Part shown: positions 3,456 through 25,594 of the stretch, piece by piece
How positions within the stretch are numbered: the first letter of the stretch is position 1
How the letters are laid out: each line of letters begins with the position of its first letter
Assembly (NCBI GenBank): GCA_013297745.1
Contig: JAAFIM010000007.1
Location: 64,747-90,380 of the forward strand
Reading direction: 5' to 3'
Source: Chitinophagales bacterium
Lineage (GTDB): Bacteria; Bacteroidota; Bacteroidia; Chitinophagales; Saprospiraceae
Length of the DNA: 25,634 nt
Program-made: the position numbers and the translations under genes
Notes under the pieces: generated by a model
What the model was told of the DNA's origin: nothing
The model's input: only the letters and a program-made list of their open reading frames with translations
Database searches by the model: none

Positions 3456-3500
3456 TTATCAAGAACTGCATTCTACAAAGGGTGCAGTTTTTGTTTTTAA
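3456..3500 (+). terminator. rho-independent terminator after fadD
   Basis: Hairpin AACTGCA-(12-nt loop)-TGCAGTT at 3464-3489, followed by TTTTTGTTTTT. Confidence 0.5.
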
Positions 3501-5784: not shown

Positions 5785-6918
5785 ATGGCCAACAATAATA
5801 AACCAAAACACAATTATATTTTTTACGGAACTCGCACCAACGCCTCCGAAGTGGAGAAAATGCTCGCGCACGTGTTCCAATCTAACGAAACTGCCATATC
5901 CAAAGGGCTAAAACAAACCCCCGTTTGTATTTGGGGGAGACACGGTATAGGAAAAACCGATTTGGTGGAGAAATTTGCTATCGAAAACGGTTATAAATGG
6001 GAATATATTGCCCCTGCTCAGTTTGAAGAAATGGGCGACTTGGTGGGTATGCCTCAAGTTACGAAAGATGAAGAGGGCAACACCATCACCCGCTTTATGC
6101 CCCCGTCTTGGGTGCCTACTGAAGAAGCGAAAGGGATTTTGTTGATAGACGACGTCAATCGCGCTGATGACCGCATCTTGCGCGGGATTATGCAATTGAT
6201 ACAAAATTATGAGCTGGTGAGTTGGTCTTTACCCAAAGGCTGGCAGATTATCCTGACCGCTAACCCCGACGGCGGCGACTATTCGGTTACGCCTATGGAC
6301 GATGCGATGCTGACCCGTATGATGCACGTAACGATGGAATTTGATGTCAAAGAGTGGGCAAAATGGGCTGAGCGCAAAAATATAGACCAACGCGGTATCA
6401 ACTTTGTGCTGACTTATCCCGAAGTGGTAACGGGCGACCGCACCACCCCGCGCACATTGACCCAATTTTTCAACGCCATCGCTTCTATCAAAGATTTGGA
6501 AAAAGAGTTGGGCTTGGTGCAATTATTGGGCGATTCTTGCTTGGACACTAGCACAGTTACGGCTTTTATCAACTTTGTGAATAGCAATTTGAACAAATTG
6601 ATTGCACCTGAAGAGATTGTAAACGCTAAAGATTTCAAAGCGCAGGTTTTTGAGCCGCTCAAAACGATGGCACAGCGCGGTTCTACCCTCCGAGTGGATA
6701 TTTTGGCTACACTTTGCACCCGTTTGGTCAATTATTTGGTGGTTAATAACATCAAACCGGATAAAGAGCAGATTCAAAACATCAAATCTTTTATCAAAAT
6801 AGACTTTTTACCCAACGATATTCGCTTGGCTATGGCTCAAGATATAGTTTCTAGTAGCAATCTAAAGTTAATTATGGCAGACCCAGAAATTGGCAAATTA
6901 TTGTTGAACAGAATGTAA
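5785..6918 (+). CDS. AAA+ ATPase, AAA_5/MoxR-like subfamily
   Basis: Walker A GRHGIGKTDL. Walker B plus downstream region ILLIDDVNRADDRILRGIMQLIQNYEL resembles the MoxR/CbbQ pattern (LLxDEINRA...). Sensor-like QIILTANP. The ~180-aa C-terminal extension was not recognised. Confidence 0.6.
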   Translation: MANNNKPKHNYIFYGTRTNASEVEKMLAHVFQSNETAISKGLKQTPVCIWGRHGIGKTDLVEKFAIENGYKWEYIAPAQFEEMGDLVGMPQVTKDEEGNTITRFMPPSWVPTEEAKGILLIDDVNRADDRILRGIMQLIQNYELVSWSLPKGWQIILTANPDGGDYSVTPMDDAMLTRMMHVTMEFDVKEWAKWAERKNIDQRGINFVLTYPEVVTGDRTTPRTLTQFFNAIASIKDLEKELGLVQLLGDSCLDTSTVTAFINFVNSNLNKLIAPEEIVNAKDFKAQVFEPLKTMAQRGSTLRVDILATLCTRLVNYLVVNNIKPDKEQIQNIKSFIKIDFLPNDIRLAMAQDIVSSSNLKLIMADPEIGKLLLNRM

Positions 6919-6977
6919 ATATGGTAAAAAAAAGCCCTGTAGTTGTTTTCTTATAATTTCTAAACTTTTTTTGTTCT

Positions 6978-7748
6978 ATGCATTTAACCCATTTTGTAAA
7001 ATTAACTGCTTTAAGTTTGTTAATTGTTGCCTGTCAATCTAAAAACAACAACAATAATCCTAATCCCAGCAGCAATTCCAACGTTTCGACCGCGCCCGCG
7101 CCTACAGTAGCTGCTGCCGCCATTACGTTTAAAACGCAAAAATTTACCGCCAAAAAGAAAGAAAATACAGCAGATTACGAAGTTGATTTGGTGAATGAAA
7201 GCCACGAGTTGGGCAAATTTATCAACCAAACCATTTGCAAAACCCTCAGCGCGGATAAAATGAATTGCGATTATCAAAAATTAGCCAACGAGTACGTAAA
7301 AGGCGATAACGAGGGGTTTAGAATGGAAACTATGCAAACGGCTAAAATTGCTTTCGCGGGCAAACGGATAATTAGCATAGCCACTACTTGGTGGGAATAC
7401 GCGGGCGGCGCGCACGGGATGGGTTCAGGCGGACATATTAATATAGACGGGGTTAATCTCAAAGTTTTGGGGATAAAAGATATGGTTAAAGATATGGAGG
7501 GGCTGAAAAAATTAATCTATCCCGAACTGAAAAAAGCATACACGGCAGAAATTGGGGGCGAGTTGGATATGCCAATAAACGATGTGGGCGAATTTGACGA
7601 TATTAGCCTCGATAAAACTTCAGTTTCTTTCAATTATAGCAGTTTGGCGCAACTTCTTGGGGGCGGAAATATGGATATACAGCAAGATTTGTGGGTAAGT
7701 TTGCCCATAGCCACAGCGCAGCCATTTTTTAACCTGCCTTTGGAATAG
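6978..7748 (+). CDS. lipoprotein, probable DUF3298/DUF4163 (RsiV-like) domain protein
   Basis: Lipoprotein signal with lipobox LIVAC. Low-complexity N/S/A linker. The WWEYAGGAHGMGSGG motif resembles the conserved GGAHG of DUF3298. Confidence 0.5.
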   Translation: MHLTHFVKLTALSLLIVACQSKNNNNNPNPSSNSNVSTAPAPTVAAAAITFKTQKFTAKKKENTADYEVDLVNESHELGKFINQTICKTLSADKMNCDYQKLANEYVKGDNEGFRMETMQTAKIAFAGKRIISIATTWWEYAGGAHGMGSGGHINIDGVNLKVLGIKDMVKDMEGLKKLIYPELKKAYTAEIGGELDMPINDVGEFDDISLDKTSVSFNYSSLAQLLGGGNMDIQQDLWVSLPIATAQPFFNLPLE

Positions 7749-7799
7749 CTAAAAATAAGCATAAAAAAACCAGCTTTGCGTGTTGCAGAGCTGGTTTTT
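7746..7799. repeat. direct repeat copy A (54 nt) spanning the stop codon of the DUF3298-like gene and its terminator hairpin
   Basis: TAGCTAAAAATAAGCATAAAAAAACCAGCTTTGCGTGTTGCAGAGCTGGTTTTT is near-identical to 9798-9853 (2 substitutions, 2 single-nt indels). Confidence 0.8.
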
Positions 7800-7810
7800 G
7801 TGTTTTTATT
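7764..7810 (+). terminator. rho-independent terminator (hairpin CCAGCTTTGCG/TGTTGCAGAGCTGG followed by a T-run)
   Basis: GC-rich stem with one G-U wobble, A-run before and TTTTTGTGTTTTT after. Confidence 0.7.
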
Positions 7811-7881
7811 CGTGTTTAAAATATCGTTGCTATCTTTTTTCTTATCTTTGCGCCAATTTCTAATTCAAGACTATATTTTTT

Positions 7882-9204
7882 ATGAAAATAACTAAAATTC
7901 ATCTGCAAAACATAGGCGTTTTTGAAGATACGACTATAGAATTTCCCAGCCACCACGAGGGCGAAAATGGTACGGATATTCATATTTTTACGGGCGAAAA
8001 TGGTAGCGGGAAAAGTACGCTATTGTTGGCGTTGATAAGTAGTTTTTTGCCAAATCACTTATCCTTTAACAATAGTCAACCGCCTAATAATACAACTTTA
8101 TATTTTTTGCAGCAAAGATTAAGGGTAAGTGGTGATAAAATAATAAATAAGATAAAAACTACTTTTAGTGTTGATGATAGAGAAGAGTTGAATAGTTTTG
8201 AAGGACAGTCAAACTCTAAAACTTTTATTAATAATAACGACTTGCCAAAACTTAAGTTGTACCACAAAATAAACAGTGGGTCTAGTATTCTAGATGAAAA
8301 TTTAATGTATGCGGTCTTTATTTACTCTGGACATAGAGCGATAATTGATTATAATTTTAATCCAAATATTGAGCTACATCCATTACACAACGGCACCAAT
8401 CTAATCAAACAAACTACTGCTAAACAATTCTTTAAGTTTGTAAAAGAGCAGATAGTAAAATCGCTTTGGGCAGAAAGAAAGGGAGATGTGCAGCGCGTAG
8501 AGAGTGTAAATTTGGCACTTAACGCAGTAAAGGAATTTATAAAAGAGGTTACTAATTTAAGTGTAGAGTTTGAATTGGATGCGGATGATACGGAAAAGGT
8601 ATTGCTGTTGGTGTCTGGGCAAGTAGTAAATTACGATGCTTTGCCTGACGGGTTGCGCTCGTTGATGAGTTGGATAGCTGACTTATTATGGCGTTTGGAT
8701 AGGTGCAAGTGGGAAAATAATACGCCATTATTGGAGCGTAGAGTGTTATTGTTTTTGGATGAAATAGAAGTGCATTTACACCCAAGTTGGCAGCGTAAAG
8801 TATTGCCTGCGGTGAAAAAATTGTTTAAAAATGCTCAAGTGTTTATCTCTACGCACTCGCCTTTTGTGGTTAATTCTATAGATGGGGCTTTTGTGCATAG
8901 GATAGAATTGGAGGGAAAAAATGCCAAAGTCTTGCCCGCTGTGCAGTCGAATAATGCTACCAATATACAAACTGTGTTGAGGGAAATTTTTGGCGTTTCT
9001 GAAGAGTTTGGATTAGAAGTTAGCGAAAAGCTTAACAAATTTATTCAGATTAAAAACGACATTTTCGCTAAAAAAGAGTATGATAAACCTTATTTTTTGG
9101 AATTAGCCAAATCTTTAATAAAAGAAGGCGAAGAATTAGAGTTAATCGTTGCGTTTGAATTGCGACAATTGAGTAAAGTGCTTAAAGAAGATTTTGCGCT
9201 ATGA
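7882..9204 (+). CDS. ptuA: ABC/SMC-like ATPase (AAA_15/AAA_21 type), Septu PtuA-like
   Basis: N-terminal IHLQNIGVF...IFTGENGSGKSTLLLAL (Walker A). C-terminal LLFLDEIEVHLHP (Walker B/D-loop) and ISTHSPFVV (H-loop). Stop overlaps the start of the HNH gene (ATGA). Confidence 0.6.
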   Translation: MKITKIHLQNIGVFEDTTIEFPSHHEGENGTDIHIFTGENGSGKSTLLLALISSFLPNHLSFNNSQPPNNTTLYFLQQRLRVSGDKIINKIKTTFSVDDREELNSFEGQSNSKTFINNNDLPKLKLYHKINSGSSILDENLMYAVFIYSGHRAIIDYNFNPNIELHPLHNGTNLIKQTTAKQFFKFVKEQIVKSLWAERKGDVQRVESVNLALNAVKEFIKEVTNLSVEFELDADDTEKVLLLVSGQVVNYDALPDGLRSLMSWIADLLWRLDRCKWENNTPLLERRVLLFLDEIEVHLHPSWQRKVLPAVKKLFKNAQVFISTHSPFVVNSIDGAFVHRIELEGKNAKVLPAVQSNNATNIQTVLREIFGVSEEFGLEVSEKLNKFIQIKNDIFAKKEYDKPYFLELAKSLIKEGEELELIVAFELRQLSKVLKEDFAL

Positions 9205-9800
9205 AAAAACAAATTAGACCAGCACAACCACAATGGTTAGCCGATAATTATAAAAAATGGGCTACAGCTTGGGCAAAATTACAAAAGAAAGGGGGGACTT
9301 TTCAGTGGGCTTGGCATCCTATTCACAAAGTTGAACGAGTGAATAAAGAAATCACTAAAATACTTTTAGATGGAATGACTCAAGGGCATTGCTCATTTTG
9401 CGATGCTTTCCCGATAGAAACAACAGGCGTAACGTTGGAACATTTTAAGCCTAAAAGCAAATATCCTTTGTTGGCTTATACGTGGAATAATTTATATCCT
9501 TGTTGTAACAAATGCCAAGAGAAAGGAGATTTTTACAGTTGGTTATTAATAAATCCCGATAATCCAAGATACGATTTTTGGGATTATTTTATTTATGAAG
9601 CATCAAGCGGGATGATTTTAGTAAATGAAGCTGAAGATAAATCTCATTTAGACCGTGCGCGTGCTTTTGCAACGATTAAAATTTACGGGTTGAATGACCA
9701 CAGCCGCCCAGAAATGCGAAAAAGAATTTACAAGCAACTACTAAAAGCTGACCCTGCGGATTATAAGGACTACGCGTATCGGTTTCTAATGGATTTCTAA
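9201..9800 (+). CDS. ptuB: HNH endonuclease, Septu PtuB-like
   Basis: HNH signature HCSFCDAF...TLEHFKPKS...WNNLYPCCNKCQEKG (C..C, EH..P, N, CC.KC). Length ~199 aa. Translationally coupled to the upstream ATPase. Confidence 0.6.
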   Translation: MKKQIRPAQPQWLADNYKKWATAWAKLQKKGGTFQWAWHPIHKVERVNKEITKILLDGMTQGHCSFCDAFPIETTGVTLEHFKPKSKYPLLAYTWNNLYPCCNKCQEKGDFYSWLLINPDNPRYDFWDYFIYEASSGMILVNEAEDKSHLDRARAFATIKIYGLNDHSRPEMRKRIYKQLLKADPADYKDYAYRFLMDF

Positions 9801-9853
9801 GCTAAAAATGAGCATAAAAAAAACCAGCTTTGCGCGTTGCAGAGCTGGTTTTT
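9798..9853. repeat. direct repeat copy B (56 nt) spanning the ptuB-like stop codon and the shared bidirectional terminator
   Basis: TAAGCTAAAAATGAGCATAAAAAAAACCAGCTTTGCGCGTTGCAGAGCTGGTTTTT. See copy A at 7746-7799. Confidence 0.8.
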
Positions 9854-9858
9854 TATTG
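9816..9858. terminator. bidirectional rho-independent terminator shared by the ptuB-like gene (+) and the convergent outer-membrane-protein gene (-)
   Basis: Hairpin CCAGCTTTGCG-CGTTGCAGAGCTGG flanked by an A-run (5') and a T-run (3'). Confidence 0.7.
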
Positions 9859-9872
9859 GTAGAAATCCCGTT

Positions 9873-10520
9873 TTATTTGTTGCCAAAAAAATAATAGAAA
9901 CCGGTTTGAAAACCAGCGTTTAGGAGATTAAGCCGTAAATCGTGATAATAAACACTTCTATTAGGATTATAATCTATACTGTAATTTAATAAAGACAGTT
10001 GAAAATCTAAAGCAAATTTATCAGAAAAACGATACATAAGACCAGCATTTACGCCTAGATTTACATTTCCAAAGTTATTTTTAAATGTGCCTCCTGGAAT
10101 GGTAGTTCCTGAATTTATTTGTATGCTTCGGGTGTAACCGCCGCCAATTTGAAATTGGGAATAAGCAAAAAGTTTATTTTCAGACAAATTAAACCAACGC
10201 CGCAAACCATAACTGGTCGTATAATTGTGGCTTTGACGATTTACCTTCCCAAAACCAACACTTTGAGGGGGGAGACCATTTGTAAATATATTTTGCGAAT
10301 AACCATAGCCTAAACTAAAGTGATGAGACCAACGCGAATTTTGCCAATAGGAAAAAGTAGGCGATAGCGAACTGCTAAACTCATAACCAGCATTAAAACC
10401 ATTTGGATTAGTTGCTCTTAAAAATAAATTGCCGCCCAAAGCCTTAGTTTTTGGTTCAAATTGGGCTTGAGAAGTGAGCGCGAAGCTCATAAAAATGAAG
10501 AAAATGAATAAACGTTTCAT
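9873..10520 (-). CDS. outer-membrane beta-barrel protein (small OmpA-like/OmpW-like barrel), paralog 1
   Basis: Signal peptide MKRLFIFFIFMSFALTSQAQ. Alternating hydrophobic/aromatic beta-strand pattern. C-terminal YYFFGNK with terminal aromatic. Paralogous to 10579..11226. Confidence 0.55.
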   Translation of the reverse strand: MKRLFIFFIFMSFALTSQAQFEPKTKALGGNLFLRATNPNGFNAGYEFSSSLSPTFSYWQNSRWSHHFSLGYGYSQNIFTNGLPPQSVGFGKVNRQSHNYTTSYGLRRWFNLSENKLFAYSQFQIGGGYTRSIQINSGTTIPGGTFKNNFGNVNLGVNAGLMYRFSDKFALDFQLSLLNYSIDYNPNRSVYYHDLRLNLLNAGFQTGFYYFFGNK

Positions 10521-10578
10521 ATTTTTACAAAAAAAATTAATAAAAAAAACTTAAAAAAATAGCTGATAAAAAATCATT

Positions 10579-11226
10579 TTATTTGTTGCCCAAAAAATAA
10601 TAGAGACCTACTTGAAAACCAGCGTTTAGGGGTTTAGATTGAAAACCGTGATAATAAATACCAGTAGCACTGCTATGATTTATACTATAATTTAATAAAG
10701 ATGCTTGGACATCTAAAGCAAATTTATTGGAAAATCTATACATAAGACCAGCATTTGCGCCTATATTCACACTCCTAAAATTAGGGCTAAAAGTACCTCT
10801 TGGTCTCATATTTCCTGAATTTACTTGTGAGCTTTGGCTATAACCGCCGCCAATTTGAAATTGAGGATAAGCAAAAAGTTTGTTTTTATACAAATTGAAC
10901 CAACGCCGCAAACCATAACTGGTCAGATAATTGTGAGATTGATAACTCATTTTAGCAAAATTAGGACTTTGAGTACTTGCACCGTTGCTAACCACACCTT
11001 GCGAATAGCCATAACCTAAACTAAAATGGTGAGACCAACGCGAGTTTTGCCAGTGCGAAAAAGTGGGCGAAATAGAACCGCTAAAATTGTAACCCAAATA
11101 ATCTCTATTAGGGTTGTTTACGTTTAAAAAAAAATTGCCGCCCAAAGCTTTAGTTTTTGGTTCAAATTGGGCTTGCAAGGTGAGCGCGAAGCTCAAAAAA
11201 ATCAATAGAATGGGTAAAAGTTTCAT
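10579..11226 (-). CDS. outer-membrane beta-barrel protein, paralog 2 (start taken at MKLLPIL, ATG 11226; the ORF-track extension to 11292 is unlikely)
   Basis: Signal peptide MKLLPILLIFLSFALTLQAQ followed by FEPKTKALGGN, almost identical to paralog 1. C-terminal YYFLGNK. Confidence 0.55.
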   Translation of the reverse strand: MKLLPILLIFLSFALTLQAQFEPKTKALGGNFFLNVNNPNRDYLGYNFSGSISPTFSHWQNSRWSHHFSLGYGYSQGVVSNGASTQSPNFAKMSYQSHNYLTSYGLRRWFNLYKNKLFAYPQFQIGGGYSQSSQVNSGNMRPRGTFSPNFRSVNIGANAGLMYRFSNKFALDVQASLLNYSINHSSATGIYYHGFQSKPLNAGFQVGLYYFLGNK

Positions 11227-11264
11227 ATTTTTACAAAAAAATTTTAATAAAAAAATAATAGGTA

Positions 11265-11306
11265 TAAAAAAAACCGTCTTGTTTGCTAACAAAACGGTTT
11301 TGTATT
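11265..11306. terminator. rho-independent terminator downstream of sodA (minus strand), bidirectional architecture
   Basis: Hairpin AACCGTCTTG-tttgctaa-CAAAACGGTT (one mismatch) flanked by A-run and T-run. Confidence 0.55.
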
Positions 11307-11350: not shown

Positions 11351-11965
11351 CTACTTGTTGGCAGCGAATAATTCGGCTACTTTAGCCCAATTAGCTACAC
11401 TGAAGAAAGCGTTGATATAATCAGCGCGGCGGTTTTGATAGTTGAGGTAATAAGCGTGTTCCCATACATCAATACCGAAAATGGGGAAGCCGCCACAGCC
11501 TTTGCTATCTACATCCATAAGCGGATTGTCTTGATTGGGGGTAGAACAAACCTCTACTTTGCCCCCTTTATGCACACACAACCAAGCCCAACCAGAACCG
11601 AAACGGGTCATAGCAGCAGCAGCAAATTTTTCTTTGAACGCTGCAAAACCACCCAAATCGCGGTTGATAGCTTCTGCCAATTCACCTGTGGGTTCGCCGC
11701 CACCATTGGGAGACATTACTTCCCAAAATAGGTTGTGGTTGTAGAAACCGCCCCCATTGTTGCGCACTGCTGGGCTGGCTTTGGAGATATTCGCTAAAAT
11801 TTGTTCGATGGTTTGATTTTCCAACTCTGTGCCTGCTATGGCTTTATTCAAGTTGTCGGTATAAGCGGCGTGGTGTTTGCTGTGGTGAATTTCCATAGTG
11901 CGCGCATCAATATGGGGCTGTAGTGCGTCGTAAGCGTACGCCAATTTGGGAAGTACAAATGCCAT
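11351..11965 (-). CDS. sodA: Fe/Mn superoxide dismutase
   Basis: [28 protein letters not shown], metal ligands, and [19 protein letters not shown] signature. Confidence 0.93.
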
Positions 11966-12071: not shown

Positions 12072-12947
12072 TTATTCTAAAACTACATCTATTTTTTCCC
12101 GCGTAAAGCCTACCGTTGCTAAAGTATTGGCTAATAAAGCCCAAAAATCGGCTAATTCGTAAGGGAAATTTTCAATTTGGTATAAATCGCTGTAGGTATC
12201 GTTTCCATACAAATAACTATTATTGCGCCAATACATCCAACTCTTTTCAATATCTTCGTTAATAAACAAACGGTTAAAATTATATTCAAAAAACAACTCA
12301 AGCCAATCATTGTGAAGGTCAGAAGCTTTTGTTTCTGCTATTAGGTAATTTAGGGTTTCGGTGACTAATTTTTCATCTTTTGCGCCCACTTTATGGAGTA
12401 GCAAGTATAAATCTACAGAGTCTTTTATACGCGGTTGGGTTATGGATTGGTGTATTTTCCAAGATAATTGAATGGGCAAAGGGGCAGCTTTGGGGATGAT
12501 AAATTTAGCACCTTGCGCGGGTTGGTATTCTATAGTTACGGGTTCAAAAGGCACAGGCCAATTAAAGCTAATTTCTATATTTAAGGAAATTTTTTCATCC
12601 CCGATAAAGGCCTTAATTTCCGTATTGACGGTGGCAAAATGGTTATACATTGCATAATCGGAATTTTCCCAATAGATATTGTCGCTATCCAATCGCTTAA
12701 ATCGTACGCCATCTTTCAAGTCGCTGTGGCAAACAGTCATCAGCCAGATGTTGAAAATTTTTTCCGCGTCTTCCATATCCCCAAAGGTTTGGCTGCAATA
12801 CCAATCCAAATCGGCTGGTAGGCGGTTGGCAGGATTAGCACAAAATTGGCGGGTTAAAAAGCTGCCTTTGAGTACAAAAGGGCTGTTGAAACTAGCAGCG
12901 CGGGCGATAAAACCCTCATAAGCGCGCATTTCTAATTCAGAAATCAT
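12072..12947 (-). CDS. AbiEii/DUF1814-like nucleotidyltransferase (pol-beta superfamily), paralog A
   Basis: NTase motif FVLKGSFLTRQF...LPADLDWY (hG[GS]...DhD). C-terminal R-x-KDxVDLxLLL motif resembling the conserved KDLYDL of DUF1814. ~290 aa, typical size. Confidence 0.45.
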   Translation of the reverse strand: MISELEMRAYEGFIARAASFNSPFVLKGSFLTRQFCANPANRLPADLDWYCSQTFGDMEDAEKIFNIWLMTVCHSDLKDGVRFKRLDSDNIYWENSDYAMYNHFATVNTEIKAFIGDEKISLNIEISFNWPVPFEPVTIEYQPAQGAKFIIPKAAPLPIQLSWKIHQSITQPRIKDSVDLYLLLHKVGAKDEKLVTETLNYLIAETKASDLHNDWLELFFEYNFNRLFINEDIEKSWMYWRNNSYLYGNDTYSDLYQIENFPYELADFWALLANTLATVGFTREKIDVVLE

Positions 12948-13034
12948 AGTTATTTGGTAAAGTTTGAGAATTATAAAAAATGGTTTAGAGTGTTGCTAAT
13001 AACGGGCAGAATTAGCGCAGTTTTTTTATTTTAA

Positions 13035-13913
13035 TCAATCCCAATCGTCATAATTTGGTCTTGGGTCAAAACCCGCTTTTTCAAAAATTGTGGTTAAGTA
13101 TTCGTAAAAATCATCTAATTTTTCTGGAACTTGATAGCTGCCATAAAAATCTGAATAGGTGTTTGTATCCCAAAAATGCTTAAAATCATAATATTTCTCC
13201 TTGTTATCCATACGCCAATACTCCCAACGGCTCTCTGATATGACTTCGTCCTCGTCAAAGTTATATTCAAAAAACTCATCTGCAAATACGCCACTCATTA
13301 TAGCTTCTTCCTCGGCTGTTTCTTTTATTAGCGCAATCATTTCATTATCAATACTTTGATGTTGCAATAATAAAGATAAATCCACAAAATCTTTCATACG
13401 CGGTTCTATGATACACTGGTGAATTTTCCAAGCGATTTGTAAGTATAAAGGTATGGTTTTGGATAGATTAAACTGCTCGTTATTGCTATTTTTGTACAAA
13501 ATTGGTTTTGGGGTAAAATGTATTGGCCAATTATAACTAATTTCAATATAAAATCGAATAGTTTGACCTTTTACAGTAGCTTCTAATACAGTACCAATAG
13601 TGGTAAATTCTTGATAATCAGCATAATCGGTATTTTCCCAATTAATGTTGCCTGCTACTAGCGGATTAAATTCTACCCCGTCGTTTAGTTTGGTATTGAC
13701 TACAGTCATTAGCCAAATGTTAAAAAAAATCATAGCATTATCCACCATACTTAGTTTTTGCAAACAATACCAATCCAAATCTGCTGGGATTCGGTCGCTT
13801 AAGCTGGGGCAAAATTGGCGGGTCAAAAAGCTACCTTTCAATACAAAAGGGCTATCAAAGGTTGCAGCGCGCTGGATAAATGATTCGCAAGCGAGTAAAG
13901 CTAAATTATTCAT
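13035..13913 (-). CDS. AbiEii/DUF1814-like nucleotidyltransferase, paralog B
   Basis: Same motifs as paralog A (FVLKGSFLTRQF, PADLDWY, PRMKDFVDLSLLL). Collinear similarity across the full length. Confidence 0.45.
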   Translation of the reverse strand: MNNLALLACESFIQRAATFDSPFVLKGSFLTRQFCPSLSDRIPADLDWYCLQKLSMVDNAMIFFNIWLMTVVNTKLNDGVEFNPLVAGNINWENTDYADYQEFTTIGTVLEATVKGQTIRFYIEISYNWPIHFTPKPILYKNSNNEQFNLSKTIPLYLQIAWKIHQCIIEPRMKDFVDLSLLLQHQSIDNEMIALIKETAEEEAIMSGVFADEFFEYNFDEDEVISESRWEYWRMDNKEKYYDFKHFWDTNTYSDFYGSYQVPEKLDDFYEYLTTIFEKAGFDPRPNYDDWD

Positions 13914-13937
13914 TTTTTATCAATAAATTATTCATTT

Positions 13938-14540
13938 TTATGGAATAAGCCAACCATTATCCAAATCTACGTTGCTGTCGTACAAACAAAATTCTGCTTG
14001 TTCTTTGCCAATTATCCAAGTATTTTGGGTTAATTCTGCTTTTAAGTTTGCAACTCGCTGCTCAAAATCGGCTCGATTGCCATAATGGCGCAGGGTGATA
14101 AATCGCTGACTTTCGTTGTTTTTTAGACTGTTTTTGGATAAGTGGGTTTGGTGTTCTTGGCAGATTTGGGTTAATAATTCCACCTGTTTATACTCAATTT
14201 TAGCGTGCCATTCAAAATAGTTTTTGCTGTTATTCAACTCATTTTCAAACAGATGCGCGCAGTAGGCGGGAATTTCTATCTTTATCCGATTAGGGTTAAA
14301 GTTGAGCTGTTTTAACTCCAAAGCTAATAAGTTGGCTTTATCTATAACCGTTTCCAACCCATTTTCGTAAAAAACTTTGGTCAGCATCGGCTGTTGTTGA
14401 TGTGCGCCCCGCGCCAAGTGGATAAGAATGGCTTTGCTTTGCAGGTTTTGGCAAATGGTGGCAAATTCCGTTTCGCGCTCGTTGTGGATAGCATCGACGG
14501 TCAAATGCAGTTCGAAGGGTAAATTTTCTATGTTTTTCAT
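13938..14540 (-). CDS. hypothetical protein (~200 aa from ATG 14540; the ORF-track start at 14609 runs into a terminator hairpin). First gene of an apparent three-gene unit with the two NTase paralogs.
   Basis: ORF track. Same strand, 25-nt gap to paralog B. No recognisable HTH or other motif. Confidence 0.4.
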   Translation of the reverse strand: MKNIENLPFELHLTVDAIHNERETEFATICQNLQSKAILIHLARGAHQQQPMLTKVFYENGLETVIDKANLLALELKQLNFNPNRIKIEIPAYCAHLFENELNNSKNYFEWHAKIEYKQVELLTQICQEHQTHLSKNSLKNNESQRFITLRHYGNRADFEQRVANLKAELTQNTWIIGKEQAEFCLYDSNVDLDNGWLIP

Positions 14541-14582
14541 AACGCTATTATACGATTTTTGCACAAAGATAGTTCCTTTTAT

Positions 14583-14616
14583 ACAAAAAAAACAGCTTGC
14601 TGTGGGCAAACTGTTT
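14583..14616. terminator. bidirectional rho-independent terminator downstream of argD
   Basis: AAAAAAAACAGCTTGC-tgtgg-GCAAACTGTTTT hairpin (one mismatch) flanked by A-run and T-run. Confidence 0.55.
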
Positions 14617-19831: not shown

Positions 19832-19869
19832 AATATGAATAGTTTTTTTAATTGGTTTGTATGTGTTGA

Positions 19870-19977
19870 AAATAATCCTTTATTTGTTCCAAATCAGAAC
19901 GGTCAGCGATAAGCCGAGAAATCGGCCAACGCTGGTTATTGACATATAAATTATACCCATCAAAGCGAATTTGTTGG
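19870..19977. repeat. 108-bp direct repeat, copy 1. It is an orphan duplicate of the 3' end of the PH-domain protein gene. The final 18 nt also encode the C-terminus and stop of the HEPN-like gene.
   Basis: Identical to 23024-23131 except one substitution (agcGataag vs agcAataag), plus a 1-nt A-run difference at the 5' edge. Confidence 0.85.
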
Positions 19978-20715
19978 AATTAGGTAGTTTTCATTATCAA
20001 TGTAAGTTTTTATCTGATTGAGAAACTCGCCAACATAAGCAAAAATTTCTTTTTTTGCCGTTAAAATATCTTGGCTGGTATCTTGAGCGGCGCATTCTAC
20101 AAAGCTAATTCTTCCGTGCGCTAAATTGTTTCTATTGTCTTTTATTGTGGTAAGAAATTTATTAGCACTTCTATAATTTTCGTTGAAGGGCGGTATTGCA
20201 AATCCATAACATTCTGCACAATGTTTAATTGTTTTAGCGTCAATGTTTCCTGCGGGCTGAAACTCAGATAATTTTATAGCTCTTTTGGCTGTAAAAACAG
20301 AAAGAAAGGTTTGGAAAATATAATTTTCTCTTGCTGTTATTGCTGCTTTCATAATAGCGTCTATTTGCTCTTTTCTCCAAAGTTTCTGCAAAGCTTCGTT
20401 CAAATTGTCTAGGAGATTGTTTTCTTCATTTGGTAGATTACCCACAGTTTCGATAATGTGAGATATTCCTTTGCGAACAAATTTTTCTACCATAGCATAA
20501 AGCAGAAGATAAGAATTTGATAATAATATCTGCCTTAATTCTGGTGGATTGTGGTAGTTCTTTTGTTGCTTTGCTTTTTTGGAGAGTTTTACATTGAGTA
20601 ATTTATGGGTTGGAAACCTTCTCTTTTTTTCAATTTTTTCAAATTTATGCACAAAAGAAAAATAAATATCCAGTTCATTTTTTTCAGCTTCAAAAGCTTC
20701 AAGAATTTCATCCAT
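19960..20715 (-). CDS. HEPN-motif protein (Rx4H), possibly a MAE_28990-like HEPN nuclease
   Basis: R-NNLA-H in TIKDNRNNLAHGRISF fits the HEPN Rx4-6H motif. ~250 aa alpha-helical composition. Confidence 0.4.
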   Translation of the reverse strand: MDEILEAFEAEKNELDIYFSFVHKFEKIEKKRRFPTHKLLNVKLSKKAKQQKNYHNPPELRQILLSNSYLLLYAMVEKFVRKGISHIIETVGNLPNEENNLLDNLNEALQKLWRKEQIDAIMKAAITARENYIFQTFLSVFTAKRAIKLSEFQPAGNIDAKTIKHCAECYGFAIPPFNENYRSANKFLTTIKDNRNNLAHGRISFVECAAQDTSQDILTAKKEIFAYVGEFLNQIKTYIDNENYLIPTNSL

Positions 20716-20723
20716 ATTTTGCT

Positions 20724-21941
20724 TTAAAAAAGTTGTGGATTATTATTTTGTGGTTTGTCTAAATTCTGAAAAATAAATGTTTTAGGGTCTCCACCCAATA
20801 GGCAATGTTTCGTAAAATCAACCCTTTCCTTTAGCCTGCCTGGGTTGTTGCTGCTGTCAGAAGTTGTTACTTTTTTAAATTCTTCGGAATTTAGCCACTC
20901 TACATTAGTAACTGTTAGATTTGGATTTTCCAAAAGCGCGAAATGCACACCTAAAGCGATAGCTTCAAATCTTACCCTTGGCACAGAATTAGCCGTACTT
21001 GTTTTTCTAAAGCCTAAAGGGAAGTAGCTTTTGACAAAATTTAGTGCATCAGTAAAGTACTTTTCCAACGTCTCTTTGTTCCATCCGTTTATTGAGCCGT
21101 CATTATTTGTTTTTTGTGATAAGTACTCATCTAGAAAAGGTTTACCCCGTTTTGGATTATCTGTGCCTTTTTCTGTATAAGCAAAAAACCTAAGTAAAAG
21201 TTCTGTAGCTTCGCCTTGTTTTTGGTTATGTGGACTAATGGGGCAAAGTTGTAGAAATAAATTATTTTTACTCATAGTCTCAATAAAGCTAAAAAAACCT
21301 TCGTGTGCATCTATACCTTTACGAATTTGACTATCTGACAGTTTTTTGCCAGAGGTATTAAGTCGGTCAAAAATATCTTTCCTAATTTCAATAGTTGCAG
21401 ATTCGTTTATACTGTGCATCCGCATAGGGCGAGCTATGAAGTTATTTCGACGAGGTTTGGATAAATCGCTAAAACTAATGCCATTTAACGACGTAATTTT
21501 TTTTAAGTTTTGTAACTTAATTTCGTCATTGACAAACATTCTTAAAGCTCTAATACGTTGAGAACCATCAATTATTTCAAGTAATCCGTCTTCTTCAAGT
21601 TGCGCTACAAAAATAGGCTGCACGGGCATACCCAAAAATAAAGATTCTACAAATCGAGATATTTCGTCGGTATTCCAAACAAATTCACGTTGATATTGCG
21701 GGATGAATAAGCATAGTGTGCCTTTTTCATCGTTTTCATCATCTATATCAATTGCAGCAGTTTCATTAAATTCAAGTTGTTCGTGCAGTTTTTCGCCTTT
21801 TGTATAGAGTTTTACCAACTCGTATATGGTAAAATCAAAGGTATTATATTTATAAGGAATGGAAAAAGATTTAATTTCATTTTCAATTTCCAATTGCTTC
21901 TCTTTATCAAGAGGGATATGTATTTTGGTTTGTTTGTTCAT
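20724..21941 (-). CDS. DUF262 (ParB/Srx-fold, GmrS-like N-terminal domain) protein; no DUF1524/HNH C-terminal domain recognised
   Basis: Signature motifs IPQYQREFVW and IIDGSQRIRAL (DUF262 consensus IPxYQRxYxW ... DGQQR). Confidence 0.6.
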   Translation of the reverse strand: MNKQTKIHIPLDKEKQLEIENEIKSFSIPYKYNTFDFTIYELVKLYTKGEKLHEQLEFNETAAIDIDDENDEKGTLCLFIPQYQREFVWNTDEISRFVESLFLGMPVQPIFVAQLEEDGLLEIIDGSQRIRALRMFVNDEIKLQNLKKITSLNGISFSDLSKPRRNNFIARPMRMHSINESATIEIRKDIFDRLNTSGKKLSDSQIRKGIDAHEGFFSFIETMSKNNLFLQLCPISPHNQKQGEATELLLRFFAYTEKGTDNPKRGKPFLDEYLSQKTNNDGSINGWNKETLEKYFTDALNFVKSYFPLGFRKTSTANSVPRVRFEAIALGVHFALLENPNLTVTNVEWLNSEEFKKVTTSDSSNNPGRLKERVDFTKHCLLGGDPKTFIFQNLDKPQNNNPQLF

Positions 21942-21945
21942 AAGA

Positions 21946-22995
21946 TTAGAAGTGTTTGTTTAAATGTTGTTTGATACTTTGACCAATGACTTCGCCTAGC
22001 TTGACAGGCACAGCGTTGCCAATATGTTTTTGTAACGCTGTAGTGCTATTTGCTGTGTTTACAAAATAGTCTTCAGGAAAAGTTTGAAAAATTGCAGCCT
22101 CAAGAAGCGTTATAGCGCGGTCTTGTTCAGGGTGGCCAAATCGCCCATTACCAAAACCAATACAATGGGTTGTCATTGTGGGGGCTGGTTCATCCCATAA
22201 CATTCTACCGTAGACATCTCCAAATGTTTTGCCAGTCAATTTTTTGTGGCAATCATTTATTAACTCAGTTGGTAAATGTTTCCAACTTTGTCCTTGTTTG
22301 ATGTATTTTATGCGCAACTTATTTGTTGCAGATAGCTTTTGTGCTCTATGTAGGGGATTGTAGGGAGAGGTTACCCCGTCAGCAACGGAAGGTAGATGGC
22401 CTATAGCTGTTTTTACGGTTTGTTTATTGTTGGTATGGGTTGGGGGAATAACTTCAATTTCTCCAAATTTAGAAGCCAACAAAACTAATCTTTTTCTGCT
22501 TTGGGGTATTCCATATTCAACACAATTGATAATTTTTTCTGTATTGGAAACAAAGTAACCGTTTTTTTTAAGTGTATTTATAAAGTTTTGATAGACAGCA
22601 TATTTATCAATTTTAGCTAATTGGGGAACATTCTCCATAGAGATAATTTCAGGTTGTGTAGCCTCAATGATTTTGCCAAAATAGTTGAGTAATCCCCATT
22701 TTTCCTCTTCATTTTTATTCTTCAATCCTGATGTGTATCGGGAGAATGGTTGGCAAGGAGCGCAGCCAACTAAAATTTTTATTTTATTAGGCGAATAGAG
22801 ATTTTGAATAAATTTTGGGTCTAATGCTTTAATATCAGCATTGATAAATTTTGCCTTATGATTTTTTTCATAAGCCACTTGGCACGTTTTATCGCAATCA
22901 ATACCAGCGATAACCTCAAAGCCTTGCTTCTGTAGCCCAAACGATAAGCCTCCAACCCCACAAAATAAATCTACAACTTCAACTTCCATAGACAA
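21946..22995 (-). CDS. dcm: C5-cytosine-specific DNA methyltransferase
   Basis: Motif I DLFCGVGG, motif IV GCAPCQPFS, motif VI SMENVPQL, motif VIII GIPQSRKRLVLLA. Confidence 0.85.
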   Translation of the reverse strand: MSMEVEVVDLFCGVGGLSFGLQKQGFEVIAGIDCDKTCQVAYEKNHKAKFINADIKALDPKFIQNLYSPNKIKILVGCAPCQPFSRYTSGLKNKNEEEKWGLLNYFGKIIEATQPEIISMENVPQLAKIDKYAVYQNFINTLKKNGYFVSNTEKIINCVEYGIPQSRKRLVLLASKFGEIEVIPPTHTNNKQTVKTAIGHLPSVADGVTSPYNPLHRAQKLSATNKLRIKYIKQGQSWKHLPTELINDCHKKLTGKTFGDVYGRMLWDEPAPTMTTHCIGFGNGRFGHPEQDRAITLLEAAIFQTFPEDYFVNTANSTTALQKHIGNAVPVKLGEVIGQSIKQHLNKHF

Positions 22996-23001
22996 AGTAT
23001 T

Positions 23002-23373
23002 TTAATTATTATCCAATTGTTCGAAATAATCCTTTATTTGTTCCAAATCAGAACGGTCAGCAATAAGCCGAGAAATCGGCCAACGCTGGTTATTGACATA
23101 TAAATTATACCCATCAAAGCGAATTTGTTGGGGCAAATAAGTGGTTTTGCGCAGGGTCATACCCAACCCGTTGCGAAGTTCTAATTCTGTCTTAGTAACG
23201 ATTAAAATAGGATTTTTGAAGAAACAAAGCCCTAAAATCAACAGCACAAAGCCCATAAATAGTTCTAACATTTCCCACAACCAAAAGCCCATTACCAGCG
23301 ATAAAACGCTGATAATGAGCATAGAAATAGACCAAATTCTGTTGTGGCGTACAGCAAAAGGGAAGTTAAGCAT
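23002..23373 (-). CDS. small membrane protein with bacterial PH-like (bPH_2/YdbT-like) domain. Its start overlaps the ftsZ stop by 1 nt (TAATG).
   Basis: Two N-terminal hydrophobic helices followed by a ~70-aa soluble domain. The 3' end is duplicated at 19870-19977. Confidence 0.45.
   Translation of the reverse strand: MLNFPFAVRHNRIWSISMLIISVLSLVMGFWLWEMLELFMGFVLLILGLCFFKNPILIVTKTELELRNGLGMTLRKTTYLPQQIRFDGYNLYVNNQRWPISRLIADRSDLEQIKDYFEQLDNN
23024..23131. repeat. 108-bp direct repeat, copy 2 (inside the 3' end of the PH-domain protein gene)
   Basis: See copy 1. Confidence 0.85.
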
Positions 23374-25560: not shown

Positions 25561-25594
25561 GCGCTCAATAGCGTGGGGTTTTACACCCCACGCG
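25561..25594 (+). repeat. 35-bp palindromic unit, copy C. It is preceded at 25514-25523 by TGTTTAGTAA, which resembles the outer arm of the 604-860 element.
   Basis: GCGCTCAATAGCGTGGGGTTTTACACCCCACGCG with perfect hairpin CGTGGGGT/ACCCCACG. Likely the left part of a second MITE-like copy running off the window end. Confidence 0.65.

Follow-up and report, generated by a model that had tools for sequence, protein, structure and literature searches.

How does a putative defence cassette come to lie between two near-identical copies of one transcription terminator? This question is raised by a 25,634-nucleotide stretch of contig JAAFIM010000007.1 (positions 64,747 to 90,380 of the forward strand, GenBank assembly GCA_013297745.1) from a Chitinophagales bacterium of the Saprospiraceae; we refer to the whole stretch as the window and count positions from its first nucleotide. 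Here, a pair of genes, ptuA and ptuB, is placed between a lipoprotein gene and a gene for a putative outer-membrane protein (OMP). Judged from sequence, the pair (7882-9800) is almost certainly a stand-alone type I Septu system (PtuA/PtuB). We propose that it forms part of a larger segment gained at this spot and that the second terminator copy arose through recombination at the resident terminator, which served as an anchor. Taken as a whole, this statement seems to us reasonably probable.

The open reading frames of ptuA and ptuB are adjacent and co-oriented and overlap by four nucleotides, ATGA (9201-9204). This overlap and the ATPase and HNH motifs reported in the initial annotation were recovered from the reading frames and their translations. 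In PtuA the Walker A (GENGSGKST, residues 38-46), Walker B (LLFLDEIE, 289-296) and H-loop (THSP, 324-327) motifs are intact, and a signature-like LPDGLRS is also present. PtuB contains HCSFCD, LEHFKP, WNNLYP and CCNKCQ, with H81 and N96/N97 in the HNH core and cysteines C64/C67 (HCSFCD) and C101/C102/C105 (CCNKCQ). PtuA matched PADLOC profile PDLC00281 (PtuA) at 2e-116, residues 1-438 aligning to profile positions 4-446 of 448, and PtuB matched PDLC00351 (PtuB) at 2.2e-48 (residues 1-198 on positions 1-194 of 195); profile coverage extends to the C-termini of both proteins. Pfam matches of PtuA were AAA_15 (9.8e-20) and AAA_21 (4.9e-18), there was no Pfam match for PtuB, and in the PDB the chains matched by sequence were solely those of PtuA and PtuB, belonging to retron I-A systems or to stand-alone Septu (8EE4). 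The assignment to Septu follows from these full-length PADLOC matches together with the Pfam and PDB matches and the intact motifs. It agrees with the architecture proposed earlier, and the profile searches did not place the pair in a non-defence family.

Septu type I, with stand-alone PtuA and PtuB, was reportedly described by Doron and co-workers in 2018, and the structures 8EE4 and 8EE7 are said to be those of Li and co-workers from 2024. The window's pair resembles this type in having adjacent, co-oriented genes with full-length PADLOC PtuA1/PtuB1 matches, an ABC/AAA_15-AAA_21 ATPase as PtuA and, as PtuB, an HNH protein of the TIGR02646 type, although its score against this NCBIfam model is 50.1 bits, just below the curated cutoff of 52.15. 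It differs in its host, an uncultured Bacteroidota lineage, and in its divergence, since homologues in the databases are about 40% identical or less, with the exception of one at 73%. This nearest PtuA is found in contigs L087-L089, which include the metagenome-assembled genome (MAG) GCA_043764605.1, among neighbours unrelated to those in the window. In this homologue the PtuB gene is interrupted after residue 130 by GGGGTATAAAACCCC-type elements (L088, 6005-6136; also L087 and L089), relatives of a hairpin repeat dispersed in the window that resembles repetitive extragenic palindromes (REP), and all three contigs end at this interruption. No record of the exact PtuA protein was found for a look-up of its genomic context, and there was no PtuA relative in the viral contigs scanned. 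The gene pair is a new and fairly divergent Septu type I member, the system itself being already known.

Homologous ATPase and HNH proteins are also found in the PtuAB of type I-A retrons (Ec78/Eco7, Ec83), which gave the best PDB sequence matches. In contrast to these, the window's pair is not adjoined by a reverse transcriptase or msr/msd RNA, its scores against the NCBIfam retron-type equivalogs are 123.7 bits for PtuA (cutoff 500) and 48.7 for PtuB (cutoff 150), and its PtuA counts 440 aa whereas retron-associated PtuA chains in the PDB have about 540-550 aa. Retron PtuA possesses a specific N-terminal extension and a helical flap (PMC12819146). No Rfam match was obtained within the window at gathering thresholds. 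On the basis of the lipoprotein and OMP neighbours, the lack of a reverse transcriptase and of an Rfam match, and equivalog scores far below cutoff, a retron I-A effector module was ruled out. An integron cassette with its attC site was ruled out as well, as there is no integrase in the window and, by inspection, no RYYYAAC/GTTRRRY core site in the repeat; that Septu has a candidate promoter box of its own and that the neighbouring OMP genes are oppositely oriented disfavours it further. The features of the window are listed in Table 1.

Table 1 Coordinates of the Septu locus, its neighbours and the second defence block within the window
Feature	Position	Strand	Description
lipoprotein gene	6978-7748	+	lipobox LIVAC; PdaC domain; resident host gene, terminator at 3' end
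terminator copy A with 9-nt tail GTGTTTTTA	7747-7808	+	hairpin 7765-7799; resident terminator; colinear with empty sites to ~7808
accessory segment	7809-11350		3,542 bp; found in the window lineage, missing from the L082/L093/L094 and L083 empty sites
TATCTTTG	7843-7850	+	candidate -7 promoter box; 32 nt upstream of the PtuA ATG; fits TAnnTTTG
ptuA	7882-9204	+	ABC-type (AAA_15/AAA_21) ATPase, 440 aa
ptuB	9201-9800	+	HNH nuclease, 199 aa
terminator copy B	9799-9853	both	hairpin 9818-9854; serves ptuB and convergent OMP1; paralogous to the resident terminator
OMP1	9873-10520	-	215 aa; signal peptide; putative small outer-membrane beta-barrel; lineage-specific
OMP2	10579-11226	-	tandem paralog of OMP1
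third terminator T3	11270-11301	-	serves SOD in the window lineage
Fe/Mn superoxide dismutase (SOD) gene	11351-11965	-	assigned by Pfam; right-hand resident neighbour
HEPN protein (HEPN_MAE_28990)	19960-20715	-	second block
DUF262/GmrSD_N protein	20724-21941	-	second block; PADLOC NsnA-like, 9e-45
C5 DNA methylase	21946-22989	-	second block

The candidate promoter box fits a motif which, judging from Bacteroides promoters, we take to be the -7 consensus of Bacteroidota, and it lies in the sole upstream stretch that is kept in the nearest Septu homologue, the T-run at the ATG excepted. As far as can be read from the sequence, ptuAB is probably a two-gene operon with a promoter of its own, and it closes with terminator copy B. 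A hallmark of Septu is the binding of a C-terminal extension of PtuA to PtuB's C-terminal domain, in an assembly of a hexamer plus a dimer. In characterised systems PtuA and PtuB form an ATPase-nuclease complex, the Walker and HNH residues of which are needed for defence; PtuB dimers are kept inhibited by PtuA oligomers until the nuclease is freed on phage infection, and the activated system nicks DNA, cuts tRNA-Tyr or does both, the outcome resembling abortive infection (PMC12819146, PMC13096335). By analogy, the window's PtuAB would be expected to follow the same mechanism, whereby an infected cell stops supporting phage growth.

The two repeats that bracket the pair are near-identical and measure 53-55 nt (copy A, 7746/7747-7799; copy B, 9798/9799-9853), with AGCTAAAAATRAGCATAAAAAAACCAGCTTTGCGYGTTGCAGAGCTGGTTTTT as the terminator-repeat sequence. 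The lipoprotein gene ends in TAG, directly followed by CTAAAAATAAGCATAAAAAAACCAGCTTTGCGTGTTGCAGAGCTGGTTTTT; ptuB ends in TAA, followed by GCTAAAAATGAGCATAAAAAAAACCAGCTTTGCGCGTTGCAGAGCTGGTTTTT, and its stop codon overlaps the first 1-2 bases of copy B. Counted from the stop codons the copies differ four times. Two of the differences are indels of a single base, namely an additional A at the stop (TAG versus TAAG) and another within the A-run; the other two are transitions, A/G at 7757 versus 9810 and T/C at a loop position. The 25-nt hairpin CCAGCTTTGCG-YGT-TGCAGAGCTGG was found exactly twice in the window when up to three mismatches were allowed, against an expectation of 0.00 from 100 shuffles. 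The bracketing described in the initial annotation, including its four differences, was thus recovered. Both copies fold strongly, at -25 to -26 kcal/mol (copy A -25.8) with z at about -4.5 to -5. On the minus strand copy B, which is downstream of the convergent OMP1, also yields a hairpin, of -21.6 kcal/mol and with a U-run behind it; this agrees with the proposal that copy B terminates transcription from both sides and is common to the OMP gene. As an A-run precedes and a T-run follows the hairpin in each copy, copies A and B are both predicted to be bidirectional intrinsic terminators.

Both junctions have been assembled independently in other samples, which excludes misassembly as the source of the duplication. 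Contigs L001 and L084 run from the lipoprotein gene through copy A into the start of PtuA, and L085 and L095 from PtuB through copy B into OMP1 (L085 also includes OMP2); all four are 98-100% identical to the window. In a blastn-short search of 95 loci and the window (1.3 Mb, with about 52 kb from close relatives), the terminator repeat was found, besides copies A and B, only at orthologous lipoprotein 3' ends of relatives. A pattern scan of JGI metagenomes gave one match, namely the L082 contig at the orthologous site, and no hairpin copy was present in the viral contigs scanned. Across this searched sequence the repeat is not generally dispersed, in line with the insertion duplication proposed in the initial annotation.

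To place the locus among its relatives, we used metagenome contigs collected via the lipoprotein, SOD, FtsZ and DUF1569 protein clusters. A scan of GTDB genomes with the lipoprotein gave no relative; with AroC it gave 80 loci, all at most 64% identical and mostly from MAGs of Saprospiraceae and related Bacteroidota, so that the GTDB species representatives include no close relative, and since no homologues of the neighbouring genes lie near aroC in these 80 loci, they offered no usable synteny. Two lineages with an empty site were found among the metagenome contigs. L082, L093 and L094 represent one strain from three samples with about 85-90% nucleotide identity to the window, and L083 is about 88-94% identical to it. 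In both lineages, a lone bidirectional terminator copy occupies the 82 nt between the stop of the lipoprotein gene and the stop codon of the convergent SOD gene, the counterpart of 11351-11965 in the window. Homology of the window to the empty sites in blastn ends at 7806-7808 and resumes at 11351; it continues for nine nucleotides (GTGTTTTTA) past copy A and not past copy B. The DNA in between contains ptuA, ptuB, copy B, both OMP genes and T3 and has a GC content of 34.5%, and the GC content at third codon positions (GC3) is 0.27-0.35 in the segment versus 0.39-0.52 in flanking and other host genes. The filled arrangement was seen only in strains that are 98-100% identical to the window.

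We consider it very probable that this strain-specific 3.54-kb segment, which separates two housekeeping genes, was gained relative to the empty sites. A gain, and a foreign origin, are indicated by the empty sites themselves, by the restriction of the filled state to near-identical strains, by the low GC3 and by the position of the nearest PtuA among unrelated neighbours. The acquired insertion proposed in the initial annotation therefore stands as far as the single-terminator empty sites in two lineages are concerned, while its size does not, the extra DNA being 3.54 kb and not about 2.05 kb. Nor does the description of the lipoprotein as DUF3298-like hold: the protein, which is conserved at 84-100% amino acid identity in L001 and L082-L084, matched Pfam PdaC (PF13739) at 30.2 bits (cutoff 29.1), and DUF3298 was undetected even at E<=10.

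The differences between the two terminator copies had been read as a sign that the event is not very recent. They are a poor clock, as copy B of the sister strain L085 is identical to the L082-lineage terminator at 53 of 53 positions. Copies A and B differ at sites where copy B has the L082 allele, and copy A has an A in common with L083 plus a loop T of its own. From this pattern, the copies may go back to two separate alleles rather than to divergence in place. T3 is similar in build to the other terminators, with a similarity of about 65-68% (counted by eye), and is not a recent copy; its likeness is confined to the A-run and T-run features, which are also seen in the terminator at 3460-3493. 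T3 was also considered as a diverged ortholog of the ancestral terminator. We rejected this, because the SOD gene is 97-98% identical across the window, L082 and L083 lineages up to its stop codon (sliding identity) and the T3 region reaches only the similarity just given; the occurrence of the same run features in an unrelated terminator weakens the idea further.

As to how copy B arose, we lean slightly towards a route in which the resident terminator would have been the homology anchor for a recombination event that produced it. The layout would accordingly consist of an anchor (copy A), an insert (Septu), a second anchor (copy B) and further DNA (the OMP genes). A circular DNA with one anchor and Septu, integrating by a single crossover, would give the observed layout, and an unequal join of two different alleles of the lipoprotein-SOD spot would give an identical one. 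On this reading, Septu would have followed the terminator and its tail in the donor, and the immediate recipient probably had the OMP genes beside the terminator, as the initial annotation proposed, both being alleles that were not observed. Copy A with its tail can be equated with the resident terminator because the empty-site sequence continues past it, to which a simple target-site duplication of 54 nt is a misfit. In the sequences searched, the terminator is present solely at the lipoprotein 3' end and as copy B, which supports its role as anchor. The cassette ends exactly at the end of ptuB, since the stop codon overlaps copy B and the profile match runs to the last residues.

The main support for such an anchor comes, by analogy, from a second block in the window with a parallel layout (19978-22999). 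It comprises three minus-strand genes with a GC3 of 0.25-0.30 and is flanked by a direct repeat of 108-132 nt (19846-19977 and 23000-23131; core about 108 nt with one mismatch), which duplicates the 3' end of orf123. In L091, from the sample of L084 and L085 and 97.5-98.6% identical, the site is empty and orf123 is directly followed by the DUF1569 gene. In L090, which stems from the same sample as L083 and has an identity of about 90%, orf123 is followed by the block and orf214, without the duplication and without DUF1569. The window possesses the block, the duplication and DUF1569; its orf123-side repeat copy has an L090-type tail, and its distal copy, preceded by the HEPN end, has an L091-type tail. 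These tails match the prediction for a single crossover exactly, and L090 is donor-like. In the window as in L090, the HEPN gene takes its last 5-6 codons and its stop from the flank, and the sequence common to the two ends in ...AACTACCTAA.

An alternative that we regard as rather unlikely, yet the first to be weighed, corresponds to the event originally proposed: the lipoprotein and OMP genes would have been convergent neighbours with one terminator between them, and a Septu cassette of about 2.0 kb would have inserted there, duplicating the 54-nt terminator in the manner of a target site. The near-identical copies do bracket exactly the two Septu genes, with the PtuB stop abutting copy B, and the layout is compatible with a recipient that had an OMP gene beside the terminator. 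However, every observed empty site joins the lipoprotein gene to SOD without OMP genes, and the supposed former neighbourhood would be an unobserved intermediate. In addition, the nine nucleotides of empty-site homology follow copy A and not copy B, which puts the insertion point out of register with the duplicated unit and is not accounted for by a plain target-site duplication. A length of 54 nt far exceeds the duplications made by transposases, which also counts against a target-site duplication, and neither a transposase nor terminal inverted repeats are present in the window. Transposition was rejected on these grounds, the empty-site sequence following copy A rather than the distal copy B.

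Site-specific integration, which appears improbable to us, would make the terminator copies the attL, internal att and attR sites of small tandem elements that lack an integrase and were served by one in trans, as in the concept of cis-mobilizable elements (CIME; PMC5704250). Direct repeats flank each block. Moreover, the second block has entered a gene at its 3' end, supplying a substitute for that end while the displaced copy now lies distally, which is the classical signature of island integration, and its HEPN-proximal end is joined to one host position in L090 and to another in the window. Against this, the window showed no gene for an integrase or recombinase (a Phage_integrase match with E=0.027 on 13941-14609 was discarded, as the gene is AbiEi with a PADLOC match of 5.7e-66), the anchors, a terminator and the orf123 3' end, have no obvious common core, and the blocks measure merely 2-3.5 kb. 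Both blocks resemble Campbell-type integration and CIME in that direct repeats of host sequence bracket the insert, with a donor-type tail on the proximal copy and a host-type tail on the distal one, an arrangement seen directly for the second block and compatible with the Septu locus. They differ from these in the absence of an integrase, in showing no evidence of excision and in the very small size of the inserts; for Septu, an intrinsic terminator moreover takes the place of a tRNA or gene 3' end as the anchor.

A filled ancestral state, from which L082 and L083 lost Septu and the OMP genes by deletion between the terminator copies, is very unlikely. It would fit the tendency of direct repeats towards deletion and the frequent loss of defence genes, but two independent losses or another tree would be needed, and the low GC3 of the segment points to a foreign origin. 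The empty sites also have a 27-nt tail between terminator and SOD that is absent from the window, where T3 and its tail are only about 65-68% similar. The empty sites are for this reason not simple deletion products, which makes a gain the economical reading. That the 54-nt sequence is a dispersed, terminator-bearing repeat of the REP type or of the miniature inverted-repeat transposable element (MITE) type, flanking Septu by chance, is barely credible: the genome does have a true dispersed hairpin repeat (GCGTGGGGTATAAAACCCCACGC) and T3 is loosely similar in build, but the window's 25.6 kb contain two copies, none was added by the relatives' DNA, the 1.3 Mb of loci or the viral contigs, the single JGI match lies at the orthologous site, and the similarity of T3 is limited to its A-run and T-run.

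Several points nevertheless weigh against the proposed anchor recombination and against the wider statement of which it is part. No allele with only the OMP genes or only Septu was found at this spot to prove the order and number of events, and neither a circular intermediate nor machinery for recombination came to light. Homologous recombination and a site-specific process would leave an identical layout, and the proposed route does not account for the origin of T3 and of the OMP genes. The search for extra terminator copies covered about 52 kb from close relatives and, of the source genome, the window. As for Septu itself, PtuB scores below the TIGR02646 cutoff, and the anti-phage role of this PtuAB is a prediction from homology.

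Regarding the other genes of the segment, the two OMP genes form a tandem duplication (9871-11282) with a period of 706 nt, 79-80% nucleotide and 68% amino acid identity and a GC3 of 0.27-0.30, and both products have signal peptides. OMP1 has a weak OmpA_like mark among precomputed hits, and a search of 5.8 billion proteins for its homologues returned itself and its tandem paralog alone, leaving the OMP origin untraced. On the other side of the locus, synteny also breaks at about 6919-6951, just upstream of the lipoprotein promoter. Upstream of the lipoprotein gene the window has an AAA_5 ATPase gene, L083 (1-2011) a TPR gene and a diacylglycerol-kinase gene, and L082 (1-169) the end of another gene, so that the lipoprotein gene and its terminator make up an island of about 860 nt whose neighbours vary on either side. 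The AAA_5 (dynein/McrB-like) ATPase (5785-6918) occurs only in window-type strains, with a weak Pfam match and no PADLOC match.

The window is rich in defence genes, with Septu, the methylase/DUF262/HEPN block and an AbiE locus with two toxin paralogs. The latter (12072-14609) adjoins SOD and consists of AbiEi (13938-14609) and two AbiEii genes. AbiEii-2 (13035-13913; GC3 0.32) is 30-65% identical to AbiEii-1 at the amino acid level in blocks of 50 residues, lowest near the C-terminus, and L083 has a single AbiEii, without AbiEii-2. The AbiEii pair was considered as a third case of anchor, insert and anchor and rejected, AbiEii-2 being a divergent paralog with 64% nucleotide identity to the L083 gene. 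Outside these loci, a dispersed REP-like hairpin, GCGTGGGGT(A/T)TAAAACCCCACGC, is present at 679-712, 768-801 and 25561-25593. A 33-nt inverted repeat (594-626/837-869, 88% complementary) encloses the first two of these hairpins, and 594-869, about 276 nt in all, may represent a MITE-like unit.

With this locus, a divergent pair from a Bacteroidota lineage that has been poorly sampled joins the known Septu systems. Knowledge of how Septu works is unchanged by it, and the gain of defence genes seen here is clean but ordinary and of the expected kind. What it does provide is a well-documented case of natural defence-gene turnover among near-identical strains, for which filled sites, empty sites and junctions from independent assemblies are all at hand. 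A bolder possibility, which we hold to be quite doubtful, is that the lineage recurrently stacks defence cassettes at convergent-gene or 3'-end spots, independently of an integrase and duplicating 50-130 nt of the upstream anchor. With similar doubt, the last gene of each cassette could be regarded as fused directly to the anchor copy (the PtuB stop in copy B, the HEPN end taken from the flank). If true, such stacking would point to mobile units with a defined end and a mechanism so far undescribed. The presence of two repeat-flanked defence blocks within 25 kb suggests that recombination which duplicates its anchor is a regular route by which this lineage gains defence genes, and if it is, flanking duplications could be used to spot recent acquisitions in metagenome-assembled genomes.

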